A DNA stretch of 53,087 bases from a virus. Lineage: Duplodnaviria > Caudoviricetes. This document shows, in pieces, positions 668 through 44,415 of the stretch (positions are counted from its first letter, which is position 1; every line of letters begins with the position of its first letter). Made by a program: the position numbers and the translations under genes. Under the pieces are notes generated by a model. It made no database searches, was not told where the DNA came from, and worked only from the letters and a program-made list of their open reading frames with translations. Where the stretch lies: IMG/VR virus record IMGVR_UViG_3300025876_000027, positions 1 to 53,087 of that record; one strand, written 5' to 3'.

Positions 668-2227
668 ATGTCAGACAATATTGTCAAGAACCTTAACTTT
701 GGCGACGATGCTAGAGTTAATGTATTTAAAGGTATAGAGAAACTCACAAAAGCCGTTAGCTCCACTTTAGGGGCTAGCGGTAAATGTGTCATCTTAGAAG
801 ATGGATCAGGTAATCCAATGATTACAAAAGATGGTGTAACTGTAGCAGAAACAATTACTTTATTAGACCCAGTTGAAAACATGGGTGCTACGTTAATAAA
901 GCAAGCAGCTAAAAAAACAGTTCAAGAAGCTGGTGATGGTACAACCACAGCTACTGTATTAGCTCATGCGATATTAGAACAAGCGTATTCTATAGAAGAT
1001 AAAAACTTAAGTCATAGAGATTTAAAAATGGGTGTAAATAAAGCTGTAGAAAAAGTTATAGCTTATTTAGAGAAAAACTCAATAAAAGTTACTGGAGACA
1101 TGATAGACTCAGTAGCAACAATATCCACTAATAACGATCCAAATCTTGGTAAAATTATTGGTGATGCATTTAGAGCAGTCGGAGAAACCGGCGTAGTAAT
1201 GATGGAACCAACAGCATCAGCTGATACTTTGGTTGAAGTAGTAGAAGGAGTTCAATATGAAAAGGGATTGACTAATTCGAACTTTGTTACTAACCGTGAT
1301 TCAAAAACTGCTGAATTAGAAAACCCTTTAGTAATGTTAGTCGACTCTCCTGTAGAAAGTATAAGACAGATCCAATCGATTCTCGAGCATGTCATAAAAA
1401 GCAATAAAGCTTTATTGATTATAGCTGACGTAGAGCAACCCGTTTTGGCTGCACTTGCGATGAACAAAACTAAAGGAAATATTAAGGTGAATGTTATTAA
1501 TGCCCCAACATATGGTATTAATAAAAAAGACACCTTAGAAGACTTAGCCTTATTAACCGGGGCGAAAGTCATAAACGAAGACCTAGGTGATGATATGGAT
1601 TTAATATCTATTGATTTCTTAGGCACATGCGTAAAAGCTGTTACTAATGACTCAGAAACAATAATTCAAGTTAATCAAAACAAAGAAGAGATTGACGAGA
1701 TAATTGTAAAACTAAAGAAGCAAATAGAAAAAGAAAAAGCACCAGGAGAAGTAATACGATTAGAAAAACGATTAGCTCGTTTATCAGCAAAAGTTGCAAT
1801 CGTAAAAGTAGGTGCTAATTCAGATATAGAGCTTCAAGAAAAGTCAGATAGAATAGAAGATGCAATTTGCGCAACTAAAGCTGCTATTAAAGAAGGTATA
1901 GTTTCTGGTGGTGGTATTGCATTATTAAATGCAGCAGATAACATTAAGCCGTTGTCGATTGGTGAAGAGATCCTCTTAGAGGCTATTAAGGCGCCTTTTA
2001 AGACAATATTAAGTAATGCGGGTATAGTATTAACAATACCTGTTTCCGGTAAAGGAAAAGGCTTAAATGTAGTTACAGGAAAAATGGTAAATATGATTAA
2101 GTCAGGTATTATTGATCCATTGCTTGTTACTAAAAGTGCATTAAGAAATGCAACATCAGTAGCAACAACAATATTATCAACCGATTGTGTAATTAATAAT
2201 TTAAGAATTAATGAAGGCAATAGGTAA
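668..2227 (+). CDS. groEL: Chaperonin GroEL (phage-encoded)
   Basis: ITKDGVTVA, AGDGTTTATVLA, GIVSGGG, GIIDP motifs; no GGM tail. Confidence 0.97.
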   Translation: MSDNIVKNLNFGDDARVNVFKGIEKLTKAVSSTLGASGKCVILEDGSGNPMITKDGVTVAETITLLDPVENMGATLIKQAAKKTVQEAGDGTTTATVLAHAILEQAYSIEDKNLSHRDLKMGVNKAVEKVIAYLEKNSIKVTGDMIDSVATISTNNDPNLGKIIGDAFRAVGETGVVMMEPTASADTLVEVVEGVQYEKGLTNSNFVTNRDSKTAELENPLVMLVDSPVESIRQIQSILEHVIKSNKALLIIADVEQPVLAALAMNKTKGNIKVNVINAPTYGINKKDTLEDLALLTGAKVINEDLGDDMDLISIDFLGTCVKAVTNDSETIIQVNQNKEEIDEIIVKLKKQIEKEKAPGEVIRLEKRLARLSAKVAIVKVGANSDIELQEKSDRIEDAICATKAAIKEGIVSGGGIALLNAADNIKPLSIGEEILLEAIKAPFKTILSNAGIVLTIPVSGKGKGLNVVTGKMVNMIKSGIIDPLLVTKSALRNATSVATTILSTDCVINNLRINEGNR

Positions 2228-7017: not shown

Positions 7018-7623
7018 ATGAAAAGCCTATTTGATTTTATTGTAGAGCCATTAAACAGCCAATACAATAATGAAATAAAAGTAGGTGACAAAAGCCTCGT
7101 AACTAACGTTGATTTAGATAATTTTAGATCAGTTAGTAATATGGCCAAAGTTATTTCAACACCAATTGCTTATAAAACAAATATATCTAAAGGTGATATT
7201 GTGGTTATACACCATAATGTTTTTAGAACATTTAGAGATATAAGAGGTAAGCAAAAAACAAGTAGATCAAAGTTTACAGAAAATTTATATTTTGTTGCAA
7301 TGGACCAAGTCTATATGTACAAAAACAAAGAAAAGTGGAATACAATTAACAATAGATGTTTTGTAAAACCACTTGTAAGTAATAATGATCTAACGTTAGA
7401 TAAAGAACGCGAGCTTATTGGTATATTAAAATACGGTAATAGTTCCTTAGAAGCTCTTAAAATCACTCCAGGAGATGTAGTTGGTTACACACCAGATGGT
7501 GAGTATGAATTTTTCATAAACGAAGAGCGATTATATTGTATGAAATCAAATGATATTGTAATTAAATATGAACACCAAGGAGACGAAGTTGAATATAATC
7601 CGAGCTGGGCGAAAAGCAGTTGA
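7018..7623 (+). CDS. GroES-like protein with two tandem domains
   Basis: Two units of F(I)V(E/K)PL...GD(I/V)V; the second ends EYEFFINEERLYCMKSNDIV. Confidence 0.6.
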   Translation: MKSLFDFIVEPLNSQYNNEIKVGDKSLVTNVDLDNFRSVSNMAKVISTPIAYKTNISKGDIVVIHHNVFRTFRDIRGKQKTSRSKFTENLYFVAMDQVYMYKNKEKWNTINNRCFVKPLVSNNDLTLDKERELIGILKYGNSSLEALKITPGDVVGYTPDGEYEFFINEERLYCMKSNDIVIKYEHQGDEVEYNPSWAKSS

Positions 7624-18152: not shown

Positions 18153-21100
18153 ATGCCTAAAGTCACTAATACTTTTATAAAAAGTAAACTAAACAAAGAT
18201 TTAGATGCTAGACTTATCCCTAATGGAGAATATAGAGATGCTGTAAATGTACAAGTAAGTAGGTCCGAAAGTGATAGTGTTGGTTCACTTGAAAATGTTT
18301 TAGGTAATAAATTAATTAAAGATTTTGGTAATACAGATCTTACATGTATAGGTTATTTTGCTAATGAATCAACTGGTATGATTTATGTTTTCTTAACAGA
18401 CTATACAGACCCAGCACCTAACACACAAAGATCATACTCTACAACTGCAGAAAATTATATATACAGCTATAGTGTTGATAATGATAGCTCTACTCTTTTA
18501 GTTCAAGGAGCTTTTCTTAATTTTTCTAAAACAAATCCAATATTTGGTATTAATCAATTAGAAGAGTTTTTGTTTTGGACAGACAATAGAAACCAGCCTA
18601 GAAAAATAAACATAAACAGAGCTAACCCAAATGGTTTAGCAACTCCTGATTATTATACTAATGAAGATCAAATATCAGTAGCAAAATATAATCCATATAA
18701 ACCTATAGAACTATATAGAGAAATAAGCTCTACTGTTATAGAAACAACAATGGAAGATGCTACAAGTAAATTTTTACCTAATGGTGGTAGTGTTATATTA
18801 AGTAGTGCTATAGCTGCTCAAGCTACTTCTTTACCAATTTCAGGAGGTTCTTTAAAAGGTGAAGTTTTAACGGCTAGTCCAGTTAATCCATATACAAATA
18901 ATGTTGGCTCTACTGTTTCTTATGTAGATGCTAATAATAATATTCAAACAATAACTGGAGTTACTGTTAATACATTTCCAAGTGCTATAGCTATAACATT
19001 GACAGGAACAACATCTAATGTTCCAGCTTTAGCTATTGGTACAGAAATTATTTTTAATGCAAACCCTAAATATAGTTCATTATTTACTGGAGATTCTGAT
19101 TATTTAGACGATTTATTTGTAAGGTTTAGTTATAGATTTAAATTTGATGATGGTGAATATTCTTTAATAGCTCCGTTTACTCAAGTTGCTTTTATACCTA
19201 AGCAAGATGGTTACTTTATGTATATAAAACCAGACTCGACTACATCAACGCCTGGCTTAGACGACCAAGCAAATGCTTATAGAAGTTCTATAGTTTCATT
19301 TGTAGAAAATAAAGTTAATATTATAAAAATAATAATTCCAAGACCTAGTGAGTTATCTACAGGTGGTGGTTTTGCAGGATCAACTATTGCTAATGATTTT
19401 AAAATATCTGAATTAGATATATTATTTAAAGAATCAGATGCTTTAGCTGTTAAGGTTGTTGATACAATACCTGTTGCAAACATTACTATAAATAGTGATG
19501 GAGATATAGAATATTTATATGAGTCAACAAAACCATTTAGAACTCTTCCTTCTGATGAGCTTATAAGAGTATATGATAAAGTTCCTGTAAGAGCCCTTGC
19601 CCAAGAGATAAGTGGAAATAGAGTTATATATGCTAATTATCAAAATAAACATACACCTCCCGCGGTACTAGATTATACTATAGCAATAAATGAAAAAAAT
19701 AATATTGCTTTAGATAAAGGAACAGCTGTTGTACCTGGTTCCACATCAGGAACAACATTAAATTTTTCTAGTTCTTCTGGAACAATAGATATAGGTAGTT
19801 ACATTTATGGAACAGGAATAGTAAAAGGAACTGTTGTAACTTCAATTACTGGATCACCCGTGACATCAGTAACAATAAGTAATGCTGCAACGAACGCGTC
19901 TGGAACTATAACATTTAGAGCTGCTGGTGATGAAGAAGTAAAAGTAAGTAAAGTAGAATATCCTAATTCATCTGTTAAACAAAACAGAAATTATCAAGTT
20001 GGTGTAGTTTTAGCAGATAGATATGGAAGACAATCTACTGTTATTTTAAATGCAGCAAATCAAGGTTCAACCATATATCATCCTTATTTTGGTAAAGGTT
20101 TAGAGCAAAACGAATGGCCAGGTGATTCTATAAAAATGTTATTTAATTCTGGTATATCTCCTTCTGCGCCTAATCAAACAGATGAGTGGCCTGGTTTATA
20201 TAATGGCAATGTTGCAAGCGCTAATTATAATCCATTAGGTTGGTATTCATATAAAATAGTAGTTAAGCAAACAGAGCAAGAATATTACAATGTTTATTTA
20301 CCTGGTATAATGGCTGCTTACCCAGATTCTACAACTTTAGAAATAGGTAATACTTCTCACGCTGTTTTAATAGCAGATAATATTAATAAAATACCTAGAG
20401 ATTTATCGGAAGTTGGTCCTGAACAAAGACAATTTAGAAGCTCTGTTCGTTTATTTGGAAGAGTTGAAAATACTGCTGTATTAATAGACCCAAGTGATTT
20501 TGGATTAAGTAATAAACAATATTATACTTCAACAGAAGGTGATACTGCTTCGATAATATCTACTATGAAAGATTTATTTGAAGTACCTACAACATTAACT
20601 GCAGGGTTTAAACAATTTTATGACCATGAATCTGATCCTTTAATCGCTAGAATAAGCACTAATTCTAAAATAGGTCAAATATCAAGCGTAAATTCAAGTG
20701 CTACACCTCCTGGTCTTCAGTATTTAGCTGTTTATGAAACAGAACCTGTAGAATCTTTATTAGATATATATTGGGAAACAACTTCATCTGGTCTTATATC
20801 TTCTTTAAACACAGCTATATTGACAGGAACAGGTGGTGGAGCTTCACTAAGTAGTTTTAATACAAATAACTGGTCTGAGGCCTTGGCTAGTGGAGGAGAT
20901 ATATTAAATGCTGGTTTTCAATTATTAAACCAAACTGGACAAGTTATAACAATAGCAGGTAATAACTCATTTACTTTAACAAGTGTAATTGATGGTACTG
21001 GTCAAGATGTTCAAAATTTACCATCTGCTGGACCTTATTTCCAAATATACTTGGATAGTGGTTTTTATAAAATTAGAACAACTTCTACATATTATAGTCA

Positions 21101-21959
21101 AGTGTATTTTAATTCAAATCCTAAACTTAGAGAATTTACTTTTAATTTTAGGTCTATAATAATTGACGCAAGTAATGTCCCTACTACAACTTTGTTTAGC
21201 GAATTTGCAACAGTAAATAATGTTTCCCCAACTATTACAGCTAGCCCAGCTTCAGGTAGTACAATTACTTCTAATAGAAATTTAACATCAACATTAGTAA
21301 CTTTGTCTTCAGTTAATGGAGCTAATAATACTAATCTAGCCGGTAAAGACTTAACTTGGAATATAGTTTCTCAAAAAGTAACTGGAGATACAACCAACAC
21401 ACAAGTAAACTATTTTGAATTAACAACTCCAGTTGTGGGTAATACAAGTGCTACAACTCTTAAAAATATAAGTTCTGCTACTGAATCTAAATCTTATGAT
21501 TTGGTTGTAAGTTGTTCAGATCCAGGAGCTACAGCACAAGTTAACTACACGTTAGATTTAAGTGCTCCTGTTAATTTTGTAAAAGACACTCAACTGACAG
21601 TGACTGTTACTCAAAACGGAGAAATAGAAAGTGAAGAATGTGTATTAATAAATATAACATCAAGTCTTGTAGCTAATCAAAATGGATTTTATTTATATGT
21701 AAATTTCCCAACTTTAGGTCAAGACTTTAGTGATTTAATAACCGCTAGTGGTGGTGGAACTGCTTCTTCACCTATTCAAATAGATAGAACAAATGCTATA
21801 ACTTCAGGTAATGCATGTGGTGTTTGGTTATACGCTACTACTCAATCAGCTGTCATAGATTTGTTTTATGACAATTGTATGCCAGTGCACGCATCTAGTA
21901 GTAGATCAGAAAGCTTTGTAGATCAAAGCATAACGGGTATTGTATTTGAAGTAATTTAA
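18153..21959 (+). CDS. Tail stabilisation/muzzle-like protein with beta-rich insertions
   Basis: KLNKDLDARLIPNGEYRDAVN, LFWTDNRNQPRKIN, FSYRFKF, DRYGRQS. Confidence 0.7.
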   Translation: MPKVTNTFIKSKLNKDLDARLIPNGEYRDAVNVQVSRSESDSVGSLENVLGNKLIKDFGNTDLTCIGYFANESTGMIYVFLTDYTDPAPNTQRSYSTTAENYIYSYSVDNDSSTLLVQGAFLNFSKTNPIFGINQLEEFLFWTDNRNQPRKININRANPNGLATPDYYTNEDQISVAKYNPYKPIELYREISSTVIETTMEDATSKFLPNGGSVILSSAIAAQATSLPISGGSLKGEVLTASPVNPYTNNVGSTVSYVDANNNIQTITGVTVNTFPSAIAITLTGTTSNVPALAIGTEIIFNANPKYSSLFTGDSDYLDDLFVRFSYRFKFDDGEYSLIAPFTQVAFIPKQDGYFMYIKPDSTTSTPGLDDQANAYRSSIVSFVENKVNIIKIIIPRPSELSTGGGFAGSTIANDFKISELDILFKESDALAVKVVDTIPVANITINSDGDIEYLYESTKPFRTLPSDELIRVYDKVPVRALAQEISGNRVIYANYQNKHTPPAVLDYTIAINEKNNIALDKGTAVVPGSTSGTTLNFSSSSGTIDIGSYIYGTGIVKGTVVTSITGSPVTSVTISNAATNASGTITFRAAGDEEVKVSKVEYPNSSVKQNRNYQVGVVLADRYGRQSTVILNAANQGSTIYHPYFGKGLEQNEWPGDSIKMLFNSGISPSAPNQTDEWPGLYNGNVASANYNPLGWYSYKIVVKQTEQEYYNVYLPGIMAAYPDSTTLEIGNTSHAVLIADNINKIPRDLSEVGPEQRQFRSSVRLFGRVENTAVLIDPSDFGLSNKQYYTSTEGDTASIISTMKDLFEVPTTLTAGFKQFYDHESDPLIARISTNSKIGQISSVNSSATPPGLQYLAVYETEPVESLLDIYWETTSSGLISSLNTAILTGTGGGASLSSFNTNNWSEALASGGDILNAGFQLLNQTGQVITIAGNNSFTLTSVIDGTGQDVQNLPSAGPYFQIYLDSGFYKIRTTSTYYSQVYFNSNPKLREFTFNFRSIIIDASNVPTTTLFSEFATVNNVSPTITASPASGSTITSNRNLTSTLVTLSSVNGANNTNLAGKDLTWNIVSQKVTGDTTNTQVNYFELTTPVVGNTSATTLKNISSATESKSYDLVVSCSDPGATAQVNYTLDLSAPVNFVKDTQLTVTVTQNGEIESEECVLINITSSLVANQNGFYLYVNFPTLGQDFSDLITASGGGTASSPIQIDRTNAITSGNACGVWLYATTQSAVIDLFYDNCMPVHASSSRSESFVDQSITGIVFEVI

Positions 21960-21983: not shown

Positions 21984-23501
21984 ATGCCAGGAGTAACAAT
22001 AGAAGTAAAATACTTTAACACTTTTGTATTAAAAAAGACGCTTAGCGGGCAATATGTAACCGACCAACCTATTTGGAACGGTTCTTTTGGTATACCTAGC
22101 ACTATAGCTGGTGGATATCCTGTTGTGGCAGACACATCTCAAGGAACTCCTTTCGCAATTGAAGAATCAAGAATACGTGGAGGTTTTAATAACACTTCTG
22201 TAGATTTTTCTCCAAGAGCGTATTTAGTTGAAGATAATCCAAACGCTTCTAGGTTATTTAGTTCTATAATATACTCTGGAATATTTAATTCAAGAACAGG
22301 TGTAAATGATACTAACGTTTTTCCTGTAGGTAGCGATATAACAAAAAGTGCTGATCCGGCAAGTGGTTCTATACAAAAGCTATATGCTGAAGATACAAAC
22401 ATGCTTGTTTTTCAAGAATACAAAGTAAGTAGGGCTTTAATAGACAAGGATGCAATATATGCTGCTGAAGGCGGTGGTACCGTAACGGCATCTAATTTAG
22501 TTATAGGAGTATTACAACCTTACGCTGGTGAATATGGAATAAGTAAAAATCCAGAAAGTTTTGCTGTTTATGGCTATAGAAAATATTTCACAGATAAAAA
22601 CAACAATGCAGTTTTAAGGCTATCCAGAGACGGTATGACTGAGATATCATCTTATGGAATGAAAGACTTCTTTAGAGATGAATTAAACAATATAGATACC
22701 AATGCTGGTGCAGGAGTAGTAAGAGGTGCTTATGATCTTTATACAGATCAATATATTTTATCTCTTCAACAAAGTACTGTATATAATACAAATACTACGT
22801 ATAAAACTTTATCATTTGACGATTCTATAAACGGTTGGACAAGTTTATATACTTATCAACCTGATCAAATATTTAGCATGCGTAATAGATTTTATTCATT
22901 TAAAAATGAAAAATTGTTTATACATAATGATACATCTGTTAGTAGAAATAGTTTTTATGGAGATGTACAACCAAGCTCTGTAACCGTTGTATTTAATCCA
23001 GACCCAATAAGATCAAAAACTTTTAGTACAATGAGTTATGAAGGTAATAATGGTTGGGAATTAACAACATTAGCTTCTGACGGTACTGGTAAAGATTATC
23101 AATCACTCAATAATGTTTATCTTAGTACAAATGATTCAGCAAATACTGTATTAAGTTATATAATGGGTGAATATATTATAAATCCAGCAAATGGTCAAGC
23201 TATTAGCGGCACACCTACAGGAGCCGGTGTTGGCCAAGGATATGTTGCTACTTTTGGTACTAAAAATCCGCCATACCCAAGACTATACGCTGGTTTTGAC
23301 AGAAAAGAAAATGCTTATGTTGCTAACTTAGTTAATAACAGTCCAGCAGCACAAGGTGAAATAATATTTGGAAGTGTAATAAGTGGTATAAAAGGTTTTT
23401 ATGCTACGGCTACATTTACAACAGATAGGTACACAGACCCTGGAGGAGAAAAACAATTGTTTTCAGTAGCAACAGACTTTTTCTCTAACAATGGATATTA
23501 A
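21984..23501 (+). CDS. Tail stabilisation protein (P22 gp10/muzzle C-terminal-like)
   Basis: GSIQKL, GEYGISKNPESF, YFTD, GWTS. Confidence 0.65.
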   Translation: MPGVTIEVKYFNTFVLKKTLSGQYVTDQPIWNGSFGIPSTIAGGYPVVADTSQGTPFAIEESRIRGGFNNTSVDFSPRAYLVEDNPNASRLFSSIIYSGIFNSRTGVNDTNVFPVGSDITKSADPASGSIQKLYAEDTNMLVFQEYKVSRALIDKDAIYAAEGGGTVTASNLVIGVLQPYAGEYGISKNPESFAVYGYRKYFTDKNNNAVLRLSRDGMTEISSYGMKDFFRDELNNIDTNAGAGVVRGAYDLYTDQYILSLQQSTVYNTNTTYKTLSFDDSINGWTSLYTYQPDQIFSMRNRFYSFKNEKLFIHNDTSVSRNSFYGDVQPSSVTVVFNPDPIRSKTFSTMSYEGNNGWELTTLASDGTGKDYQSLNNVYLSTNDSANTVLSYIMGEYIINPANGQAISGTPTGAGVGQGYVATFGTKNPPYPRLYAGFDRKENAYVANLVNNSPAAQGEIIFGSVISGIKGFYATATFTTDRYTDPGGEKQLFSVATDFFSNNGY

Positions 23502-25876: not shown

Positions 25877-28800
25877 ATGGAAGAATTAGAAGAAATTGTA
25901 CAAAAAATGATGGATGAAAATACTCCTGAAGAAGAAATCAAAAAGTACATTAAAGATTACAAAGAGGGAAAGTCAAACGGTGTTGTAGCAATGGATGCGA
26001 CTGTAACACCAGAACAGGAAGCGTCCGAAAATATGGAATTACAATCGGAAAATATTTCTTTGGAATCACAAGAGCGTGAAAAAAGCCCAAATGGCTTATT
26101 AATTAATATAGAAAAATCTATAAAAGGAGCTAGAGAATTATCTTTAAAAAAACAAGAGTCTGAAGTTATTTCTAATTTTAATGATGTAAATAAAATTTTA
26201 AATTTAAATTTTGAAGGAGAAATTGTTGAATCAACTTCTGTTTCTACTCAAGAAATAAATGAAAACGCAAAATCCGCAAGTATTGGAAAAGCTTTAGATG
26301 ATGCTACTAAATTAAGTTTTGAAGAAAAACAATTAGCTATTTCACAAGCCGAAAATTTTGTAAATAATAAATCTACAAAATCTGTAAAAGTTAAAAAATT
26401 TCCTAACAATCCTGTTAGTGTTTTTATAAATAAACAGATTCCAAACGATGAATGGGTTGATTTAAATAAAAATGCAAAAACAAAAGTTTTTAATAATTTA
26501 AAAAAAGAATACCCAAGTTTTACACAAAAAGATTTTGATGAAAACTTAAATACGTATAATGAAGAAATACTTACTGAAATGGTAAGTATAAAAAATAAAA
26601 TAAATTTAAGAAAAGAAAGAGATAATAAAATAATAAACGTTATAGACACTTTTGATTTTTCAATGTCCTTAACAGATGCTCAAGAAAAATTAATAAAATA
26701 CAAAGAAAAAGAAAATAAAAAACTAGAAAAAAATATACAAAATTCTAGTGATTTTATGAATAACGCTGGCTCATATTTAACTCAAATAAATAACACTATA
26801 AAAAAGCTTGCTGGCACTAAATATGAAACTCAAGAACAAGCTAATAGAGCTAGAAAATTAGTTGACTCTTTACAATTAAAATTTAAAGAAACTCAAGAGG
26901 CTTCTTCAAAAAAATATCTTCAAGCAATGGATGATATAGAGACTTCAAATACAGCTTTGTCAGATTTAAATATTTTAACAAGAAATTATAATCCAATAAC
27001 TAATTTTGTTCAATCATTAAAAGCAAAAGGAGCTGGCCAGTTTGCCATAGGTGGTCTTAGGCTTTATGAAACTATTGTTAATCTTCCTGTTGAAATAGGT
27101 GAACTTTTAAACGTAAACTCAGCTTCTGATATATATATGAATAGCATGTTAGAAAGACCTGGCTCTTTCCAAGGAGTACCTAATGCTGTGACTACTGAAA
27201 AAAGTATAAAATTGATAAAAGAATGGCAAGAGGGTATATATAAAGAAATGCCATTGCCGCAAGATTTTGAAGATTTAAAAACACCTGAAGAATATGGTAG
27301 GTATATATCAGATCTAGCTGGTAGCCAACTTTTAAATATAGCTTCTGTTATGGTTTTAAAAAAAGCTGCACTACCTGTTTTAGGGTTAAATTCTTCTGGT
27401 GCTAAACTCCAACAGTTTGCTGAAGAACAAGAAAAATTAGACGCTTGGAAAAAAAATAAAATAGGACCTAAACCTGAAAGTGGAGATGTTAGTTTTGCAC
27501 AAAAATATATAACAGCAATTGGTTTTGGTGTTCTTGAAGGAGTAGGTTCAAAGCTACAATTAAAATTATATAAAGATTCACTTAGAGGATTTAGAGGTGC
27601 TTTAAAAAACCCTAAACTATCAGTAGGTATTAGGCAAGGCTTTACTAATTCACTAAAGTCAACTTTAAGTACGGCTAAAGATTTTGGTTTAGAAGGTCTT
27701 GAAGAAGGTTTTATAGTACAATATGGAAATAATTTTCTTGATAGGTTTGTTTTAGGAAAAAATATAAATTTACTTGATGGAGTTAAAAAAGCTGCAATTG
27801 ATGGTGTTTTAATAAGTCCTTTTTATAAAGCACCAGGGGTTTTAACGCCTATAGTTTCTATATTTCAATCTGTAGATTCTAATCAAAAAATAAGTCAATG
27901 GAAAACTGAAATAGATAAAATACAAAATTCATTGGTTGAAAATGCCAATATGGATTCTGAATTAATTCAAGTTGCTGAAAAAAGAATTTTTTCTTTAGTA
28001 AGTAAAATATCTGGGGAAATAAATAAAACAATGGATAGAACACTAAACATGTCTGAAGAAGACGTGATTAGTTTAGGTCAAATAGATGCGGAAATTTTTA
28101 ATTTAAGAAAACAACAGCAAAAAGCAGAGCAAAATGATTTATCTTTTAAAGGAGAAAATCCTTTATTAAAATCAATAGAAACAGAAGCAAACAATCTTTT
28201 ATTTGATAAAAATAATATATTAGAACCTTATATAAAACAAGATAATATTAAAAAAATAAAAGAGGTTCAAGAATTAAGTTCTAAAGCTAAAATTGACGAT
28301 AATTCTAATTTTTACGATACTAAAGAGGGTTTTATTAAAAGAGCCAAAGAATTAGGCATTGAAGTTACTGGAGAAGAAGACGCTCTTATAGATCCACAAA
28401 CTGGAGAAGTATTAATAAACGTAGACGTTGCTTCTGAAACAGGTGCTGTTTCTGCTCAACTTCACGAATATCTTCATAGAATATTAAAATCATCTTTTGT
28501 AAATGATTCTAAATCATTAAAGAAAATTAAAGATGAATTTAGAAATATTTTAAGTAAAAAACAATTAGCAATAGTTGAACAAAGAATTAATAAAAATTAT
28601 AGGTTTAATGAAGATGGTTCTGAAAAAAATGAATTAGAATACGCTGAAGAATACTTCACGGCTTTTTCTGACGCTGTTTTTAAAGATGAAATAAAATGGT
28701 CTGATAATTTAACAGAGTCGTTTTTATCATTTGGAAAAAAAATATTAGAACCAATTAGAAAAATACTTGGTAATGAAAAATTAGAATTTACTTCAGGAAG

Positions 28801-31800
28801 AGATGTTTATGATTTTATAATAGACTATAATAAAAACATTAAAAAAGGAGAAATAACCAAAAGAGGTGAAACTTTAATAGAAAAAGGAAAAAACATTAAT
28901 AAAAGTCAAGACGCTGTTAAACCTGTTGTTGCTTCTAAATCTAAAATAAAAGAAGCTTACGATGAGCTACAACAAATAGACGAGACAGAAGCTAACTTTA
29001 CTCTTGATTCAAAAAAACAAAAAGCATTAACAGATAGAAAAAATGAATTATTAAAAATACTTCAAGATGAAAATATATATGAGGAGTTACGTCAAATAGA
29101 TGAATTTGAAGCTGACTTTAATCCAAATGAATTTTCTAAAAATAGAAAAAAAGAACTTTTAGATTTAATAAAAAAAGAAGAAACAAAAGAAATAGTTAAA
29201 TTTTCTAAAACTAAAAAAGGTGTAAGTGCCTCAGAAGAAGTTCAAAGATTATTTAACGAAAAACCTAGAGACTGGGAGGTTGAAGTCATAAAACAAATGA
29301 GACCTATAACAGCTAAGCTTGTAGAAAGAAGAAGAGACGTTACTGGTTTTGATAGACAAATTTTAATTGATGAAATAGAAACAGGTGAAAGAGGTATTTT
29401 AGATTTAATAAGAAGTTATGATCCTAAAAAGAACGATTCTTTAGCTGCTTATATAAATACTTTTTTAAGCTTTAGAGCTCAAGAAGGTTCTAAACGTGTT
29501 TTAAAAGAAGTGTTTGAATCAGACGTCACCGAAGAAAGAAGTGTTGCAGCTCAAGAAGATGACATATCTATAGAAGATGCTGTAGATGAATCATTTAAAC
29601 CTACAATAGAGCAAAAATCAAAATTAAGAAGAGAAATAAAATTACCAGATGAGCAAGTTGAAAAAGTCAGAGAAGCAGTTAGAAAAACATTTGGAACAAG
29701 GTTACCTGACGTTAACTCGCCTGAATTCAAAAAAGCTCTTAGAAAAGCTTATGACACAGAGTTATTTAAAGAATTAAAAACAAATGTTTTTAAAACTAGA
29801 GATGAATACAGAAGTTTTTTAAGAGAAAACTGGAAAGCTTTATACGATGCAATACCTCAAGAAACACTTAACCAAAGCTTTGCGCCATTTAGAGAAGAAG
29901 TTTTAGATGAAAGCGGTAAACAAAAAAGAGAAAAAACACCTGAAGGTGAGCGTATATTTAGAAAAAAGAATATAACTAGAGAAGAGTTTTTAGATTATTT
30001 CTTTAATCCAAATGTTGGAGGTTCTACAAGAGGTACTAGAAAAGATGCAATAGTAAGGATGTTAGCTCAAGAACTTGGTTTTGATGCCACAATGGAAACC
30101 ATACAAGAGCCTAAAGTTGCAGAGAAAATAGCATTTGCTAATCCCACTGTTACAGTTCCAATTGCAGGAGTTGTACTTAACAGACCTGATGCAAAATTTA
30201 GTAAATCAAAATTACCAGAAGAATATGGTTGGCAAAAAGATGTCTATAAAATGGAAAGTATTGATGATGTTAAGCCATATATAGATAACTGGAAAGATTT
30301 AATGGAGCTTAAAGGTAAAAATGGTAAAAAAGCATTTAGTTCTAATTTGATAAGTTTTAGCATGCTTATGGGTGCTCCTAGAGCTTATTTAAAGAATATA
30401 GTAAGTATTAAAGAAATAGACAAAGCTGTAGGTAAAAATAACAAAAAAAATATAACTAGTTTACTTAATTATGATAAAAAATTATCAAATATAATTTATG
30501 GTAGTTTTAAAGGTCAAGAAACTGGTAAGGTAAAGCCTTCGCAAACTTTTGGTGGAAATACTAATTCTAAAAAATACAAAGAAAATAAATTAGAAAATTT
30601 ATCATATGTACAAGGTTATAACAAAAGAAACTCTTTACTTTTTGATAAGCTACTAATTGAAATAAATGAATTTTTTAATAGTAAAAATTTTACTGATGCT
30701 GAAATAAAAAAATATGGATCTTCTATTTTATTAATGTTAGAATCAACACAAGCAGAAAGAAATCATGCTTTATCAAACGGTGCTGCTGTTGTAGCTAAGT
30801 TTAATAATAACTATTCTGGTAAGTTAGAATATGAACACGCTGTTCCTAGTAAATACGTTTATGAATATATTTTAGATAATATTTTAGATAAAAATAAAAG
30901 TTTTGAAGATGCTTTAAAAAATATAAAACAAAATTTTACAGTTATTGTCATACCTGCAAATATTGCAAAAATAGTAGATACGGTATATAAATATACGATG
31001 CCAAAAAACTTTGACATAAATAAACCTGGAGATTGGATTAAAAGGTATATAAATCCTGAGGTTAAAGCAGCTTTAAAAGAAGAAGGAATTGATCCAAATT
31101 GGTTTGAAAACAATATGGAAATGCTTAACAGCAAAGATAAAAATTTGTTTAACCCGTCTAAAGAAGTGAAAGCAAGCAAAACTAAAGCTTCTTTTTTTAA
31201 TAAAATGATAGAAATAAAAACAGGTATACCTGCTAAGCGAAAAATAAGTGCAGTTACAGCAGCTAAAATGGGTGAAGAAAACAGAAAAATAGATTTCTTT
31301 ATTTCTCCATCTGCTGAAGACTTCATGGGATTACTTTATAAAACTATAGGTAAGGGCAAAGTAGGTGATGATCAAAAAAAGTGGATTAACGAAAATATAA
31401 TGAAGCCTTATGCTATAGCTATAGAGAAAATTACAATAGCAAGAAATGTTGTAACAAATAGTTTTCAAGCCATAACAAAAGATTTAAATATAACAGAGAA
31501 AGATTTAAAAAAGAAAATACCTAATAGTGTTTTTACTCAAGAAGATGCTGTAAGAGTTTATATATGGGCAAAGCAAGGATTAGAAATACCAGGTATATTA
31601 AAGAAAGAACAAAAAGAACTTGTTAGTTATGTTAATGGTAAAAGCAATTTAGTTAAGCTTGCCAACAACGTTATAAAAATAAATAACGTAGCTTTTAAAA
31701 CACCAACTGATTCATGGCAGGTTGGTAACTTAGGAACTGATCTTTTAGAAAGTTTAAACACAACTCGTAGAGCAGAGTTTTTAGAAGAGTGGCAAAATAA

Positions 31801-33163
31801 TGTTGATGATATTTTTTCTGAAAACAACCTTAATAAGCTTGAAGCTGCTTTTGGTAAACCTTACAGATTAGCTGTTGAAAATTCTTTACAAAGAATGAAA
31901 ACAGGTAAAAACAGAAACGTTGGAAGAGATAACACAACAAATAGAGTTGTTGATTGGACCAATGGTGCTACAGGTACAATAATGTTTTTTAATTCTAGAT
32001 CTGCTATACTTCAAACTATATCAGCCGTAAACTTCATAAACTTTGGTGATAATAATATAATAGCAGCAGGTAAAGCTTTTGCAAATCAAAAACAATATTG
32101 GTCAGATGTAACAATGTTGTTTAATTCAGAGTTTCTAGTAAATAGAAGAGATGGTTTAAAAATGAGTGTAAATGAAGCAGATATTGCTGACGTAGCTAGA
32201 CAAAAAGGCGTTAAAGGTTTAATAGCAAGATTATTAAAACTTGGTTTTACGCCTACGCAAGTAGCTGATAGTATTGCTATAGCAACTGGTGGTGCTACTT
32301 TTTATAGAAATAGATACAATGCTTTAGTAAAAGGTGGTATGAGCAATACTGATGCACAAGCTCAAGCAATGAGAGATTTTAGAGAAACAGCTGAAGAGTC
32401 TCAACAGTCAAGCAGACCTGATAAAATTAGCCAACAACAAGCTAGTGAATTAGGGCGTATAATACTTGCTTTTGCTAACACACCATCTCAGTATGCAAGA
32501 ATAATTAAAAAAGCCGCCCTGGATCTTAAGAATCGCCGAGGCAGTGACAAAGAAAACATATCTAAAATACTTTATTACACAGTAGCTCAAAATCTTTTAT
32601 TTAATGCGCTTCAAAACGCTATGTTTGCTGTTGCGTTTGGAGATGTAGATGATGAAGATAAACTTAAAAAAGAAATAAGAGTTGCAAATGGCATGGCTGA
32701 TTCTTTATTAAGAGGTATGGGTATTCAAGGAGCTATACTTTCTGTAGTTAAAAACGCTGCAATAAGAGTATATAAACAAGAATATAAAGAAATACCTATG
32801 GAATTATTAAGGATAAGTCCACCTATTTCTTCAAAGTTTAGAAAAGTTAAAAGAGCAACTGATATAATGAGCTGGGATGGAGATGAAATATTTGAGCAAG
32901 GTTTAACAATAGATAATCCAGCTATTGAAATAACAAGCAAAACTGTTGAAGCATTAACAAACTTACCTTTAGACAGAGCTATTAAAAAAATAACAAATCT
33001 TAAAGATGCTACAGATAGTGATTTAGAATTTTATCAAAGATTAGCTTTAACAGGTGGTTGGAATAAATGGGAATTAGGTATACAGGATAAGAAAAAAGAA
33101 AAACCTGTATCATCTAATGTAAATACAGGAAATATAATAGAAAAAGGAGAAATAATAGAATGA
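25877..33163 (+). CDS. Giant polyvalent putative ejection protein (zincin + sigma-like + HNH-like domains)
   Basis: HEYLH at aa 863; GILDLIRSYDPKKNDSLAAYI at aa ~1173; EHAVP at aa ~1653; podovirus ejection-protein position. Confidence 0.75.
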   Translation: MEELEEIVQKMMDENTPEEEIKKYIKDYKEGKSNGVVAMDATVTPEQEASENMELQSENISLESQEREKSPNGLLINIEKSIKGARELSLKKQESEVISNFNDVNKILNLNFEGEIVESTSVSTQEINENAKSASIGKALDDATKLSFEEKQLAISQAENFVNNKSTKSVKVKKFPNNPVSVFINKQIPNDEWVDLNKNAKTKVFNNLKKEYPSFTQKDFDENLNTYNEEILTEMVSIKNKINLRKERDNKIINVIDTFDFSMSLTDAQEKLIKYKEKENKKLEKNIQNSSDFMNNAGSYLTQINNTIKKLAGTKYETQEQANRARKLVDSLQLKFKETQEASSKKYLQAMDDIETSNTALSDLNILTRNYNPITNFVQSLKAKGAGQFAIGGLRLYETIVNLPVEIGELLNVNSASDIYMNSMLERPGSFQGVPNAVTTEKSIKLIKEWQEGIYKEMPLPQDFEDLKTPEEYGRYISDLAGSQLLNIASVMVLKKAALPVLGLNSSGAKLQQFAEEQEKLDAWKKNKIGPKPESGDVSFAQKYITAIGFGVLEGVGSKLQLKLYKDSLRGFRGALKNPKLSVGIRQGFTNSLKSTLSTAKDFGLEGLEEGFIVQYGNNFLDRFVLGKNINLLDGVKKAAIDGVLISPFYKAPGVLTPIVSIFQSVDSNQKISQWKTEIDKIQNSLVENANMDSELIQVAEKRIFSLVSKISGEINKTMDRTLNMSEEDVISLGQIDAEIFNLRKQQQKAEQNDLSFKGENPLLKSIETEANNLLFDKNNILEPYIKQDNIKKIKEVQELSSKAKIDDNSNFYDTKEGFIKRAKELGIEVTGEEDALIDPQTGEVLINVDVASETGAVSAQLHEYLHRILKSSFVNDSKSLKKIKDEFRNILSKKQLAIVEQRINKNYRFNEDGSEKNELEYAEEYFTAFSDAVFKDEIKWSDNLTESFLSFGKKILEPIRKILGNEKLEFTSGRDVYDFIIDYNKNIKKGEITKRGETLIEKGKNINKSQDAVKPVVASKSKIKEAYDELQQIDETEANFTLDSKKQKALTDRKNELLKILQDENIYEELRQIDEFEADFNPNEFSKNRKKELLDLIKKEETKEIVKFSKTKKGVSASEEVQRLFNEKPRDWEVEVIKQMRPITAKLVERRRDVTGFDRQILIDEIETGERGILDLIRSYDPKKNDSLAAYINTFLSFRAQEGSKRVLKEVFESDVTEERSVAAQEDDISIEDAVDESFKPTIEQKSKLRREIKLPDEQVEKVREAVRKTFGTRLPDVNSPEFKKALRKAYDTELFKELKTNVFKTRDEYRSFLRENWKALYDAIPQETLNQSFAPFREEVLDESGKQKREKTPEGERIFRKKNITREEFLDYFFNPNVGGSTRGTRKDAIVRMLAQELGFDATMETIQEPKVAEKIAFANPTVTVPIAGVVLNRPDAKFSKSKLPEEYGWQKDVYKMESIDDVKPYIDNWKDLMELKGKNGKKAFSSNLISFSMLMGAPRAYLKNIVSIKEIDKAVGKNNKKNITSLLNYDKKLSNIIYGSFKGQETGKVKPSQTFGGNTNSKKYKENKLENLSYVQGYNKRNSLLFDKLLIEINEFFNSKNFTDAEIKKYGSSILLMLESTQAERNHALSNGAAVVAKFNNNYSGKLEYEHAVPSKYVYEYILDNILDKNKSFEDALKNIKQNFTVIVIPANIAKIVDTVYKYTMPKNFDINKPGDWIKRYINPEVKAALKEEGIDPNWFENNMEMLNSKDKNLFNPSKEVKASKTKASFFNKMIEIKTGIPAKRKISAVTAAKMGEENRKIDFFISPSAEDFMGLLYKTIGKGKVGDDQKKWINENIMKPYAIAIEKITIARNVVTNSFQAITKDLNITEKDLKKKIPNSVFTQEDAVRVYIWAKQGLEIPGILKKEQKELVSYVNGKSNLVKLANNVIKINNVAFKTPTDSWQVGNLGTDLLESLNTTRRAEFLEEWQNNVDDIFSENNLNKLEAAFGKPYRLAVENSLQRMKTGKNRNVGRDNTTNRVVDWTNGATGTIMFFNSRSAILQTISAVNFINFGDNNIIAAGKAFANQKQYWSDVTMLFNSEFLVNRRDGLKMSVNEADIADVARQKGVKGLIARLLKLGFTPTQVADSIAIATGGATFYRNRYNALVKGGMSNTDAQAQAMRDFRETAEESQQSSRPDKISQQQASELGRIILAFANTPSQYARIIKKAALDLKNRRGSDKENISKILYYTVAQNLLFNALQNAMFAVAFGDVDDEDKLKKEIRVANGMADSLLRGMGIQGAILSVVKNAAIRVYKQEYKEIPMELLRISPPISSKFRKVKRATDIMSWDGDEIFEQGLTIDNPAIEITSKTVEALTNLPLDRAIKKITNLKDATDSDLEFYQRLALTGGWNKWELGIQDKKKEKPVSSNVNTGNIIEKGEIIE

Positions 33164-43662: not shown

Positions 43663-44415
43663 TCATAGATAATCAAGCACTTGCGAGTGGTCAACATTGT
43701 CTATTAATTTTTGAACTGCTTGCTTTTTCATCTCTGATATACGTACGTAATCGCTTATGCCTTTTATATTTAGTAACTTTGCTATGTCTTTAGCTGAGTG
43801 CTTGTCACAATCGAGACCGTAAGATAGACGTAAAACTTCATATTCTGTATCATTTAAATGTTTTTTCATTAAACTTTTTAAATAAACATTCATCAGTGGT
43901 ATGTTATATGGCTCTGATTCATCAGGTATTTGATACATCATGTTGTCATCATCATCATTTACTTGAGCATCAATACTTAAAAATATACTATTAAAGAACA
44001 TTGCAACCATTGTTTTGTCTTTCGGGTTGCTACGTATCTCGTTAAGCTTATGTTCTGGTATTCTCATATCACCGCGAGCCATATCAATTCTACGTCTAAT
44101 GTTACCCTTGATACGTTTACTAAGAAAAGATTTTAATGTTTTCTCTATATCGTCAGATAACCTTAGCTTAGTCCAGTCTAATTTGTCTACAGCTTTTACT
44201 AGTCCTTCGTTACCGATCTGTAGTATATCATTGATACTCAGCACACCAGACGCTTGTTGTGACGTTGAAAATTTTCTCGCTAAGTTTTCTACTAGTGGCA
44301 TAAATACTATTATAAGTTCGTCTCTTGTATATTGGTCGTAATCTTTTTTATCAGGCATACATGCAATTAAATCCTCTTTGTAGCGGACATAATTAGGTAC
44401 GTTATATTTTTTCAT
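43663..44415 (-). CDS. Sigma70-family RNA polymerase sigma factor
   Basis: PLVENLARKF, DILQIGNEGLVKAVDK, MRIP, EVLRLSYGL..IAKLL region 4. Confidence 0.92.
   Translation of the reverse strand: MKKYNVPNYVRYKEDLIACMPDKKDYDQYTRDELIIVFMPLVENLARKFSTSQQASGVLSINDILQIGNEGLVKAVDKLDWTKLRLSDDIEKTLKSFLSKRIKGNIRRRIDMARGDMRIPEHKLNEIRSNPKDKTMVAMFFNSIFLSIDAQVNDDDDNMMYQIPDESEPYNIPLMNVYLKSLMKKHLNDTEYEVLRLSYGLDCDKHSAKDIAKLLNIKGISDYVRISEMKKQAVQKLIDNVDHSQVLDYL

Follow-up and report, generated by a model that had tools for sequence, protein, structure and literature searches.

Polyvalent proteins of phages and conjugative elements, as described by Iyer, Burroughs, Anand, de Souza and Aravind in 2017 (PMC5512222), have been proposed to travel together with the DNA and to set free domains that give transcription an early start or act against defence, and the same authors proposed that such proteins undergo autoprocessing mediated by a zincin. 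Another group of relevance is that of the cargo proteins of crassviruses, for example gp45–gp50 of crAss001, for which Bayfield et al. (2023, PMC10172136) proposed an ordered passage through the tail as one thread. Here, we consider a giant protein of 2428 amino acids (aa) that is encoded in the IMG/VR virus record IMGVR_UViG_3300025876_000027; the whole record, which is linear, has a length of 53,087 bases and a completeness estimate of 83%, is referred to below as the window. In this protein, a six-residue motif of the KFSK type recurs at the borders between modules, downstream of a predicted zincin, and a reading to which we give a little less than an even chance is that these motifs are candidate processing sites cut by the zincin of the protein itself. 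The self-processing of a polyvalent protein by its own zincin is known as a prediction (PMC5512222); what is added here is a defined junction motif.

The resemblance to the polyvalent proteins of Iyer et al. lies in the giant size, the several domains, the late or virion gene setting and the HExxH zincin with a later Glu (PMC5512222), and the zincin, sigma-2-like, variable and C-terminal modules are all found in one open reading frame (ORF) within a virion-gene context, as is the case for polyvalent proteins in the sense of these authors. The differences are that the giant protein has no match to the Pfam model MPTase-PolyVal and no recognised LPD domain (LPD38/39 being an Atlas lead only), and that it has a defined, repeated junction peptide; a cleavage-site motif was not met in PMC5512222, whose supplementary alignments could bear on this. 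A search of the literature found no phage-related description of a KFSK-type junction motif among the matches listed. With the crassvirus cargo proteins, the giant protein shares the location of its gene just downstream of muzzle-type genes, a very large size, N-terminal hydrophobic stretches and an expected passage through the tail in an unfolded state. Looser parallels among ejected proteins are gp14–16 of T7 and the virion RNA polymerase of N4. The giant protein differs from these in that sequence similarity to them was not detected and that none of its domains was recognised as an RNA polymerase; instead, there is a sigma-2-like module, and the phage has a separate sigma gene.

The motif occurs four times downstream of the zincin-like domain as VASKSK, KFSKTK, KFSKSK and KASKTK (S1 to S4, respectively; Table 1). 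An earlier note on this DNA, made from the sequence alone, had listed these peptides along with a weaker one, LSSKAK, and all five are where it had placed them. It had also raised the frequency expected by chance, given the high Lys and Ser content of the protein. In 5000 composition-preserving shuffles of the giant protein, the pattern [KV][FA]SK[ST]K, observed four times, had a mean of 0.0048, and the pattern [FA]SK[ST]K, also observed four times, had a mean of 0.026, with four copies being reached in 0/5000 shuffles in both cases; the bare SK[ST]K was observed four times against 0.26 expected (P = 0.0006). The four strong copies are therefore far above expectation, and the high Lys and Ser content is no explanation for the repeat. 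The idea that LSSKAK is a weaker site is not supported, since it is at chance level and is not retained in homologues (see below). In a six-frame scan of the window (frames of at least 80 aa), K[FYLM]SK had only two matches, both in the giant ORF. A further F-S-K, the third of the protein and one that the earlier note had not listed, is in EFSKNR at aa 1085–1090 (29129–29146), inside the second repeat of the insert.

The serine codons vary between the copies of the motif (TCT, AGT and AGC), so the repeat has been kept, or selected, at the level of the peptide rather than that of the DNA. Both a DNA-level repeat offering microhomology for recombination and a frameshift or slippery site were considered and rejected, since the codons differ between the copies and Tandem Repeats Finder found nothing. 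In models made with AlphaFold 2 (AF2), the predicted local distance difference test (pLDDT) is below 50 for the motif residues of S1 in the zincin model and of S2 and S3 in the sigma-like model, so S1, S2 and S3 are predicted to lie in low-confidence, disordered linkers.

The family to which the giant protein belongs was collected by a word-index search with aa 780–1800 as the query, which gave 199 homologues, of which 120 were used, and by a scan of IMG/VR, which gave 366 matching stretches, of which 80 loci were used. In the set of 120, the 4-mer KFSK stands out among those present in multiple copies: there are 157 occurrences against 9.8 expected, carried by 84 proteins with 1.87 copies each. 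In a logo made from 239 windows aligned on K[FYLM]SK, a pattern that itself dictates the K, the S and the K, position −1 is I, V or L (50%), the second motif residue is F (65%), L (21%), M (7%) or Y (5%), position +4 is S or T (59%), and there is little else; the consensus is hydrophobic-K-[F/L/M/Y]-S-K-[S/T]. The distribution of the motif along 241 proteins is uneven, with a density per 1000 aa of 1.56 between the zincin and the C-terminal module, 0.19 in the N-terminal part and 0.20 in the C-terminal module; the core K-[FLMY]-S-K-[ST] is, in other words, about eight times denser in the middle third than at either end, where the densities are near a rough composition-based estimate. In the other ORFs of the same loci, the density is 0.08 per 1000 aa. 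A scaling of the number of motifs with the length of the middle region was rejected (Spearman 0.08, p 0.23). Free-standing modules with the motif at the N-terminus were sought among 1266 ORFs and none was found; K[FLMY]SK is within the first 20 residues of six of the 1266, always as KLSK, and five of these six are opposite-strand ORFs of about 92 aa. Another 4-mer, AFAN, is also present in multiple copies (177 against 5.7 expected, in 110 of the 120 proteins, 1.6 copies each), and in the giant protein of the window it is found at aa ~1424 (KIAFANPT) and in the C-terminal module (ILAFANTP).

How the parts of the protein are distributed among 119 homologues was assessed by BLAST with six parts as queries. 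The sigma-like module is found in all 119, a number that is biased by the region used as the query, the C-terminal module in 115 and the zincin in 98, as compared with 35 for the N-terminal part, 33 for the insert and 27 for the variable module. In the IMG/VR loci, where the giant ORFs range from about 1900 to 3500 aa, the C-terminal module is matched over at least 70% of its length by 79 ORFs, the zincin by 39 and the sigma-like module by 12. Thus, the protein is a mosaic with a constant C-terminal module. A phmmer search with the sigma-like module gave 444 representative relatives, in which nearly all the matches are inside proteins of 1000–3400 aa, and the short "proteins" that match this module are fragments of giant proteins.

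That the motif flanks swapped modules, which the earlier note had suggested checking in homologues, is borne out both by the enrichment of the motif at junctions and by the orders of the cassettes. The motif lies 4–11 residues before the start of the BLAST match for the sigma-like and C-terminal modules (4–7 aa in many homologues for motifs of the S2 type) and 2–31 residues past the end of the sigma-like module. When counted over distinct junction segments, with 1367 random windows as controls, the strict motif is present before the C-terminal module in 91 of 227 junctions, before the sigma-like module in 44 of 176 and within 40 aa after the sigma-like module in 62 of 169, as against 27 of the 1367 control windows (2%), an enrichment of 12- to 20-fold. 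The looser F-S core is present in 116/227, 43/176 and 140/169 of these junctions, respectively, as against 123/1367 controls. The motif is thus strongly enriched at the junctions yet far from universal there, and many junctions have worn forms such as QFSK, NFSK, KFSL or KFAK. Retention was also scored site by site, with [KRV][FLMYAW][SA][KR] near the aligned place, in those homologues whose alignment spans the site: S1 is retained in 15 of 107, S2 in 35 of 140, S3 in 23 of 68 and S4 in 31 of 111, and LSSKAK in none of 57. The F and the S are retained while the flanks of the motif drift.

Splitting the middle regions of 118 proteins at the motifs gave 206 segments, which form 53 clusters that occur in many orders. 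The sigma-like cluster (cluster 0) is followed by clusters 2, 4, 7, 9, 10, 12 or 28, and the cluster ahead of cluster 1 is 2, 3, 4, 5, 6, 11, 12, 27 or 30. The same core recurs past unrelated upstream sequences and ahead of unrelated downstream modules. The starts of the tblastn matches of relatives cluster at about aa 843, 1100–1118 and 1774, the last two being just past S2 and S4. One homologue (P0081) has a Zeta-toxin/AAA_33 kinase domain at aa 1468–1619, within a cassette (aa 1405–1804) between two KFSK motifs; apart from this domain, Pfam found in 19 diverse homologues only DUF6934, in two of them. Short conserved peptides at the border between a constant and an exchangeable region are also known in polymorphic toxins, where VENN in CdiA and DPxGL in Rhs serve for demarcation and the peptide is sometimes also a processing site. 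The giant protein differs from these toxins in having several junctions, another peptide sequence, the setting of a phage virion and a zincin in cis.

The enzyme that could act on the motif is predicted to be a zincin metallopeptidase of the gluzincin type, on the basis of its HExxH...E sequence. The hallmark residues that the earlier note had pointed out are invariant, its numbering of E864 is right, and the later Glu is E925 in EEYF: an alignment of 37 sequences has a mean column identity of 26%, and its only columns without any variation (37/37) are those of H863, E864, H867 and E925. E925 would be the third ligand of the zinc. A search of 274 giant proteins gave 210 profile matches, all of which (210/210) keep HExxH, and an iterated profile gave 230 matches, two of them without HExxH; most of the remaining giant proteins have another HExxH about 150 aa before the first motif. 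In the AF2 model (pLDDT 75.7), there are two short strands, the HExxH is in a helix (residues 55–69) and E925 is in another (residues 114–130), an arrangement that matches the zincin core as described in PMC5512222. In 65 of 203 distinct proteins, the first motif comes 120–169 aa past HExxH, where the zincin domain ends, and the place of VASKSK, at +155, fits with this. A VIA-align search with the model aligned it with anthrax lethal factor (Z 5.0, 135 residues aligned, root-mean-square deviation (rmsd) 4.4) and with the Pro-Pro endopeptidase PPEP-2 (Z 4.2, 124 aligned). Both belong to the M34 zincins, which cut defined linear motifs in linkers; they resemble the domain in the window in that they are small HExxH...E domains, and, among solved zincins, only these could be aligned with the greater part of the model (124–135 residues). 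They differ from it in their target motif, in a fold match that is weak and within the noise (Z 4.2–5.0) and in the absence of an ATLF hidden Markov model (HMM) match. A prediction of the complex between the zincin domain and a 36-residue stretch around S2 had a score of 0.00, which is uninformative either way.

The module between S2 and S3 was described in the earlier note as a sigma module of about 330 residues. This holds for its first 100 or so residues, which have a sigma domain 2 fold, and is not supported for the module as a sigma factor in its entirety, which has no Sigma70_r2 match and the second half of which has no recognised fold. In the AF2 model of the module (pLDDT 79.9), values below 50 are found at residues 1–7 (KFSKTKK), 106–139 and 333–338 (KFSKSK). 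When this model was compared with 48,161 chains by VIA-align, a sigma factor was named in 23 of the top 30 rows, and six more rows were chains from RNA polymerase initiation complexes; the sigma rows have a Z of 6–8.9, the best of them (Z 8.9, rmsd 2.5 Å, 86 residues aligned) covering model residues ~8–106. The Foldseek list for the same model is rich in sigma factors yet weak (E > 0.2). The Sigma70_r2 HMM had no match on the module, whether in the Pfam search of the protein or in the search of the window, and a search of the PDB with the sigma-like profile found no sigma factor. As regards a domain 4, model residues 140–330 had no sigma match in the VIA-align list, which was filled by domain 2 rows. 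The label "sigma-2-like" is a fair one for the modelled fold. Activation of a sigma factor precursor by cleavage is known for pro-sigma-K, which is processed by SpoIVFB; the likeness is that of a sigma domain 2 fold behind a peptide that needs to be removed, and the pro-sigma-K structure 8vjl is among the best matches of the model (Z 8.0, 100 aligned). Unlike pro-sigma-K, the sigma-like unit here is internal to a chain of 2428 aa, has no domain 4 recognised among the matches listed and does not match Sigma70_r2.

We infer that the motif is cut, along with the identity of the enzyme, the position of the cut and its timing, as follows. The giant protein would be a modular cargo ("polyvalent") protein, the middle third of which is a string of exchangeable modules, and each junction would carry, within a disordered linker, a brief sequence signal a few residues ahead of the next module. 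The HExxH...E zincin, just upstream of the first junction, would then cut at these motifs. Zincins commonly prefer a hydrophobic residue at P1', and a cut between the K and the F (or L, M or Y) would suit such a preference. Cutting would probably follow ejection into the host and refolding: this timing is the likelier one because a single thread can pass the tail in order and because the zincin would be active only once it had refolded. Since the N-terminal part is not separated from the zincin by a motif, the products would be aa 1–1017, 1018–1107, 1108–1439, 1440–1764 and 1765–2428, that is, the N-terminal part with the zincin, the insert, the sigma-2-like module, the variable module and the C-terminal module, with about 1017, 90, 332, 325 and 664 residues, respectively. 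The features to be expected of a polyprotein were found, namely, a site motif repeated at junctions, low-pLDDT linkers (at S1 to S3) and a zincin in cis. A six-residue signal that is independent of context, located in linkers at the borders of modules and downstream of a protease, fits a site for an endopeptidase that takes its substrate as an extended strand, and the enzyme would most obviously be the protease in cis. A more elaborate version, which we consider improbable, would have the ejected thread of a large family of uncultured marine phages cut itself at K-[F/L/Y]-S-K, before the second residue, so as to free a sigma-2-like factor along with lineage-specific effectors; the N-terminal F, L or Y of each freed module would serve as a timer for its removal after the early stage of infection. 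These three residues at the N-terminus are N-degron residues in bacteria.

Whether the zincin is tied to the motif was assessed from co-loss on a FastTree phylogeny of 252 C-terminal modules, with N-terminally truncated records and partial modules left out. In 21 phylogenetically independent pairs that differ in the presence of any upstream HExxH, the motif differed in the same way in 8.1, in the opposite way in 0.0 and not at all in 12.9 (median sign-test p 0.008). Several results weigh against cutting by the zincin. The co-loss in the whole protein may in part reflect the loss of whole middle regions, and when only the C-terminal junction is considered, the pairs that go the same way outnumber those that go the opposite way by 5.6 to 2.9 for the strict motif (p about 0.5) and by 6.2 to 0.9 for the loose one (p about 0.07). 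The strict motif is present at this junction in 9 of 27 proteins without HExxH, being absent from the other 18, as compared with 100 of 225 proteins with it. Two loci in which the zincin is degenerate, with LEELFH in place of HExxH (L019 and L035), keep 4–7 motifs; the motif directly past the zincin is lost in both (L019:3578-11995 and L035:6584-14695). The strict motif is present in only 25–40% of the examined junctions. As for the enzyme itself, Foldseek gave no match at E ≤ 0.001 with the zincin model, the Z scores for anthrax lethal factor and PPEP-2 are no higher than those of unrelated helical rows, and neither the MPTase-PolyVal HMM (PF18818; E ≤ 10) nor the ATLF HMM had a match in the window. 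Finally, the syntenic giant proteins of the cultured phages that are nearest by portal, namely gp18 of Elemovirus (L085) and that of MW202828 (L087), carry HExxH without a KFSK-type motif; neither has BLAST similarity to the giant protein of the window, and a single KASK in the former and no motif in the latter were found. The motif is therefore a trait of the uncultured family and not of all such phages. As judged from these sequence comparisons, the link between zincin and motif appears to be moderate and is suggestive.

If the motif is not a processing site, it might be a docking peptide that binds uncut to a part of the virion (the portal, tail rings or muzzle), keeping the chain aligned for packaging and ordered ejection, or else to a host factor once delivered. 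This we regard as rather unlikely, even though stretches of the cargo proteins in the crAss001 virion are bound to the portal, tail barrel and muzzle, and the main text of that paper contains neither "cleav" nor "proteoly" (PMC10172136). The phage in the window has homologues of the muzzle, the motif survives in some proteins without a zincin, and disordered linkers are the usual place for docking motifs. Docking offers no evident reason, however, for the tight spacing before each exchangeable module or for the confinement of the motif downstream of the zincin; moreover, no other virion protein of these phages bears the motif, and no partner has been identified. The persistence of the motif where HExxH is missing or degenerate could also point to another protease, from the host or an unrecognised one from the phage, that would cut the sites while the zincin acts as an effector on host proteins, a role that Iyer et al. 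also allow for zincins (PMC5512222). This is unlikely in our view, since no protease was recognised among the window ORFs scanned (33 with PHROGs and 14 with Pfam), since a head-maturation enzyme should have sites in other head proteins, whereas the density of the motif outside the giant proteins is as low as that given above, and since the trend towards a joint loss of zincin and motif points to an enzyme in cis.

A different explanation is that the peptide is a relic of the junctions, carried along with shuffled modules or favoured as a linker, without a biochemical role. At the C-terminal junction, the motif belongs to a longer conserved stretch (e.g., VQQAKVKFSKS), which means that simple descent accounts for some of its spread, and most junctions lack the strict motif. 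We nevertheless hold a relic to be decidedly unlikely because the same core is found between sequences that are unrelated both upstream and downstream, because the copies in the giant protein lack the identity in DNA that could guide recombination, and because the F and the S are kept while the flanks drift, which a plain flexible linker would not need. That F-S is retained better than the rest of the motif is also what would be expected of a self-cleavage independent of any protease, as at the H-F-S sites of Nup98 and PIDD, which are cleaved between F and S by an N-to-O acyl shift. Such a reaction requires a His directly ahead of the Phe as well as a conserved folded domain with its end at the site, whereas here the upstream sequences vary from site to site, the Phe is preceded by K, Q or N, and the motif is predicted to be disordered; an acyl shift is therefore extremely unlikely.

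Cutting by the zincin in cis remains the reading that we favour, and its interest lies in that autoprocessing by zincins has been a hypothesis since 2017 (PMC5512222), for which this family of giant proteins supplies a conserved candidate site, an invariant E864 and predictions of product sizes, which make it directly testable. If the motif is cut, a double-stranded DNA phage would be using a polyprotein strategy, with a sigma-like factor delivered along with the genome, and the junction motif would be a handle for parsing unannotated modules, 53 families of which have been separated already. If it is not cut, there would still be a conserved linear signal to explain, one confined to the cargo protein of a widely distributed group of marine phages.

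In the N-terminal part, the sole Pfam signal is a faint TMP_N match (E 0.61), and apart from this, the whole protein gave nothing usable against Pfam (E ≤ 1) and PHROGs. Searches of the PDB by sequence or profile with the N-terminal part, the zincin and the sigma-like, variable and C-terminal modules had no match with an E value under 0.06, and tblastn with the whole protein or the C-terminal module had no match in 50,697 phage records. The insert was said in the earlier note to consist of tandem repeats, and this is real at the level of the protein, where there are two repeats of about 40 aa; Tandem Repeats Finder detected no tandem repeat in the DNA around it. The same note had called aa 1446–1764 "HNH-like", a label that is unsupported because this variable module has no match in Pfam (E ≤ 1), in PDB sequences (E ≤ 1) or in the Atlas, where its best score is 0.86, to unnamed clusters. 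The C-terminal module has a mean column identity of 55% (40 sequences); it has no credible Pfam match (40 modules searched) and no PDB match, and in the Atlas it matches viral hypothetical clusters, with LPD38/39 as low-share leads only.

Table 1. Positions of the parts of the giant protein, of other genes in the window and of the syntenic giant genes in two cultured phages.
Feature	Position	Strand	Remarks
Giant ORF, 2428 aa, candidate virion cargo/polyvalent protein	25877..33163	+	Open frame
N-terminal part, aa 1-799	25877..28273	+	Moderately hydrophobic stretches at aa 485-503 and 644-662
LSSKAK, aa 800-805	28274..28291	+	Chance match
Zincin-like domain, aa 806-1017	28292..28927	+	HEYLH at aa 863-867 (nt 28463-28477); E925 (nt 28649-28651)
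S1, VASKSK, aa 1018-1023	28928..28945	+	155 aa past HExxH; low-pLDDT tail of zincin model
Insert, aa 1024-1107	28946..29197	+	Two diverged ~40-aa repeats
S2, KFSKTK, aa 1108-1113	29198..29215	+	Just before sigma-like module; pLDDT <50
Sigma-like module, aa 1114-1439	29216..30193	+	Predicted sigma domain 2 fold at ~aa 1115-1213, disordered stretch, ~190-aa domain
S3, KFSKSK, aa 1440-1445	30194..30211	+	pLDDT <50 at model residues 333-338
Variable module, aa 1446-1764	30212..31168	+	Replaced by other module families in relatives
S4, KASKTK, aa 1765-1770	31169..31186	+	tblastn matches of relatives begin at ~aa 1774
Conserved C-terminal module, aa 1771-2428	31187..33160	+	Family hallmark
GroEL	668-2227	+	PHROG E 9e-136
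GroES-like protein	7018-7623	+	Annotated in plus-strand block
Muzzle-like ORF	18153-21959	+	Pfam crassvirus muzzle model (crAss_MUZ)
Muzzle-like ORF	21984-23501	+	Pfam crassvirus muzzle models (crAss_MUZ)
ORF, 233 aa	23520-24221	+	No Pfam/PHROG match
ORF, 547 aa	24231-25874	+	No Pfam/PHROG match
Separate sigma-factor gene	43663-44415	-	Sigma70_r2 HMM match at 44089-44304 (-), sole such match in window
Syntenic giant gene, 3694 aa	L085:852-11936	+	One or two HExxH
Syntenic giant gene, 3859 aa	L087:42-11621	-	One or two HExxH

The phage, a marine flavobacterial podophage, has muzzle genes and a tail of the crAss type, and its portal is 40–51% identical to those of podophages of Flavobacterium, Cellulophaga, Maribacter and Tenacibaculum. 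Its plus-strand block comprises genes for GroEL, a GroES-like protein, the large terminase, portal, capsid and tail proteins, the muzzle-like ORFs, unknowns, the giant ORF and an amidase, and its minus-strand block comprises genes for ribonucleotide reductase, thymidylate synthase, a primase-helicase, an Erf recombinase and a sigma factor. The giant ORF comes after the crAss-muzzle-like genes and before the amidase, that is, between the tail genes and the lysin; from this order of genes and from the podophage relatives of the portal, it follows that the giant gene is at the position that genes for ejected cargo have in crassviruses (PMC10172136). The two ORFs between the muzzle genes and the giant gene could, judging by their position, encode smaller cargo proteins. 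The phage would have one conventional sigma gene in addition to the sigma-2-like module inside the giant protein. The homologue of the crassvirus muzzle is split over the two adjacent ORFs, the former of which corresponds to the start of crAss_MUZ and the latter to its end together with the C-terminal domain model. Lastly, the presence of chaperonin genes is shared with a cultured relative, Elemovirus, which has GroEL and two co-chaperonin genes as well.

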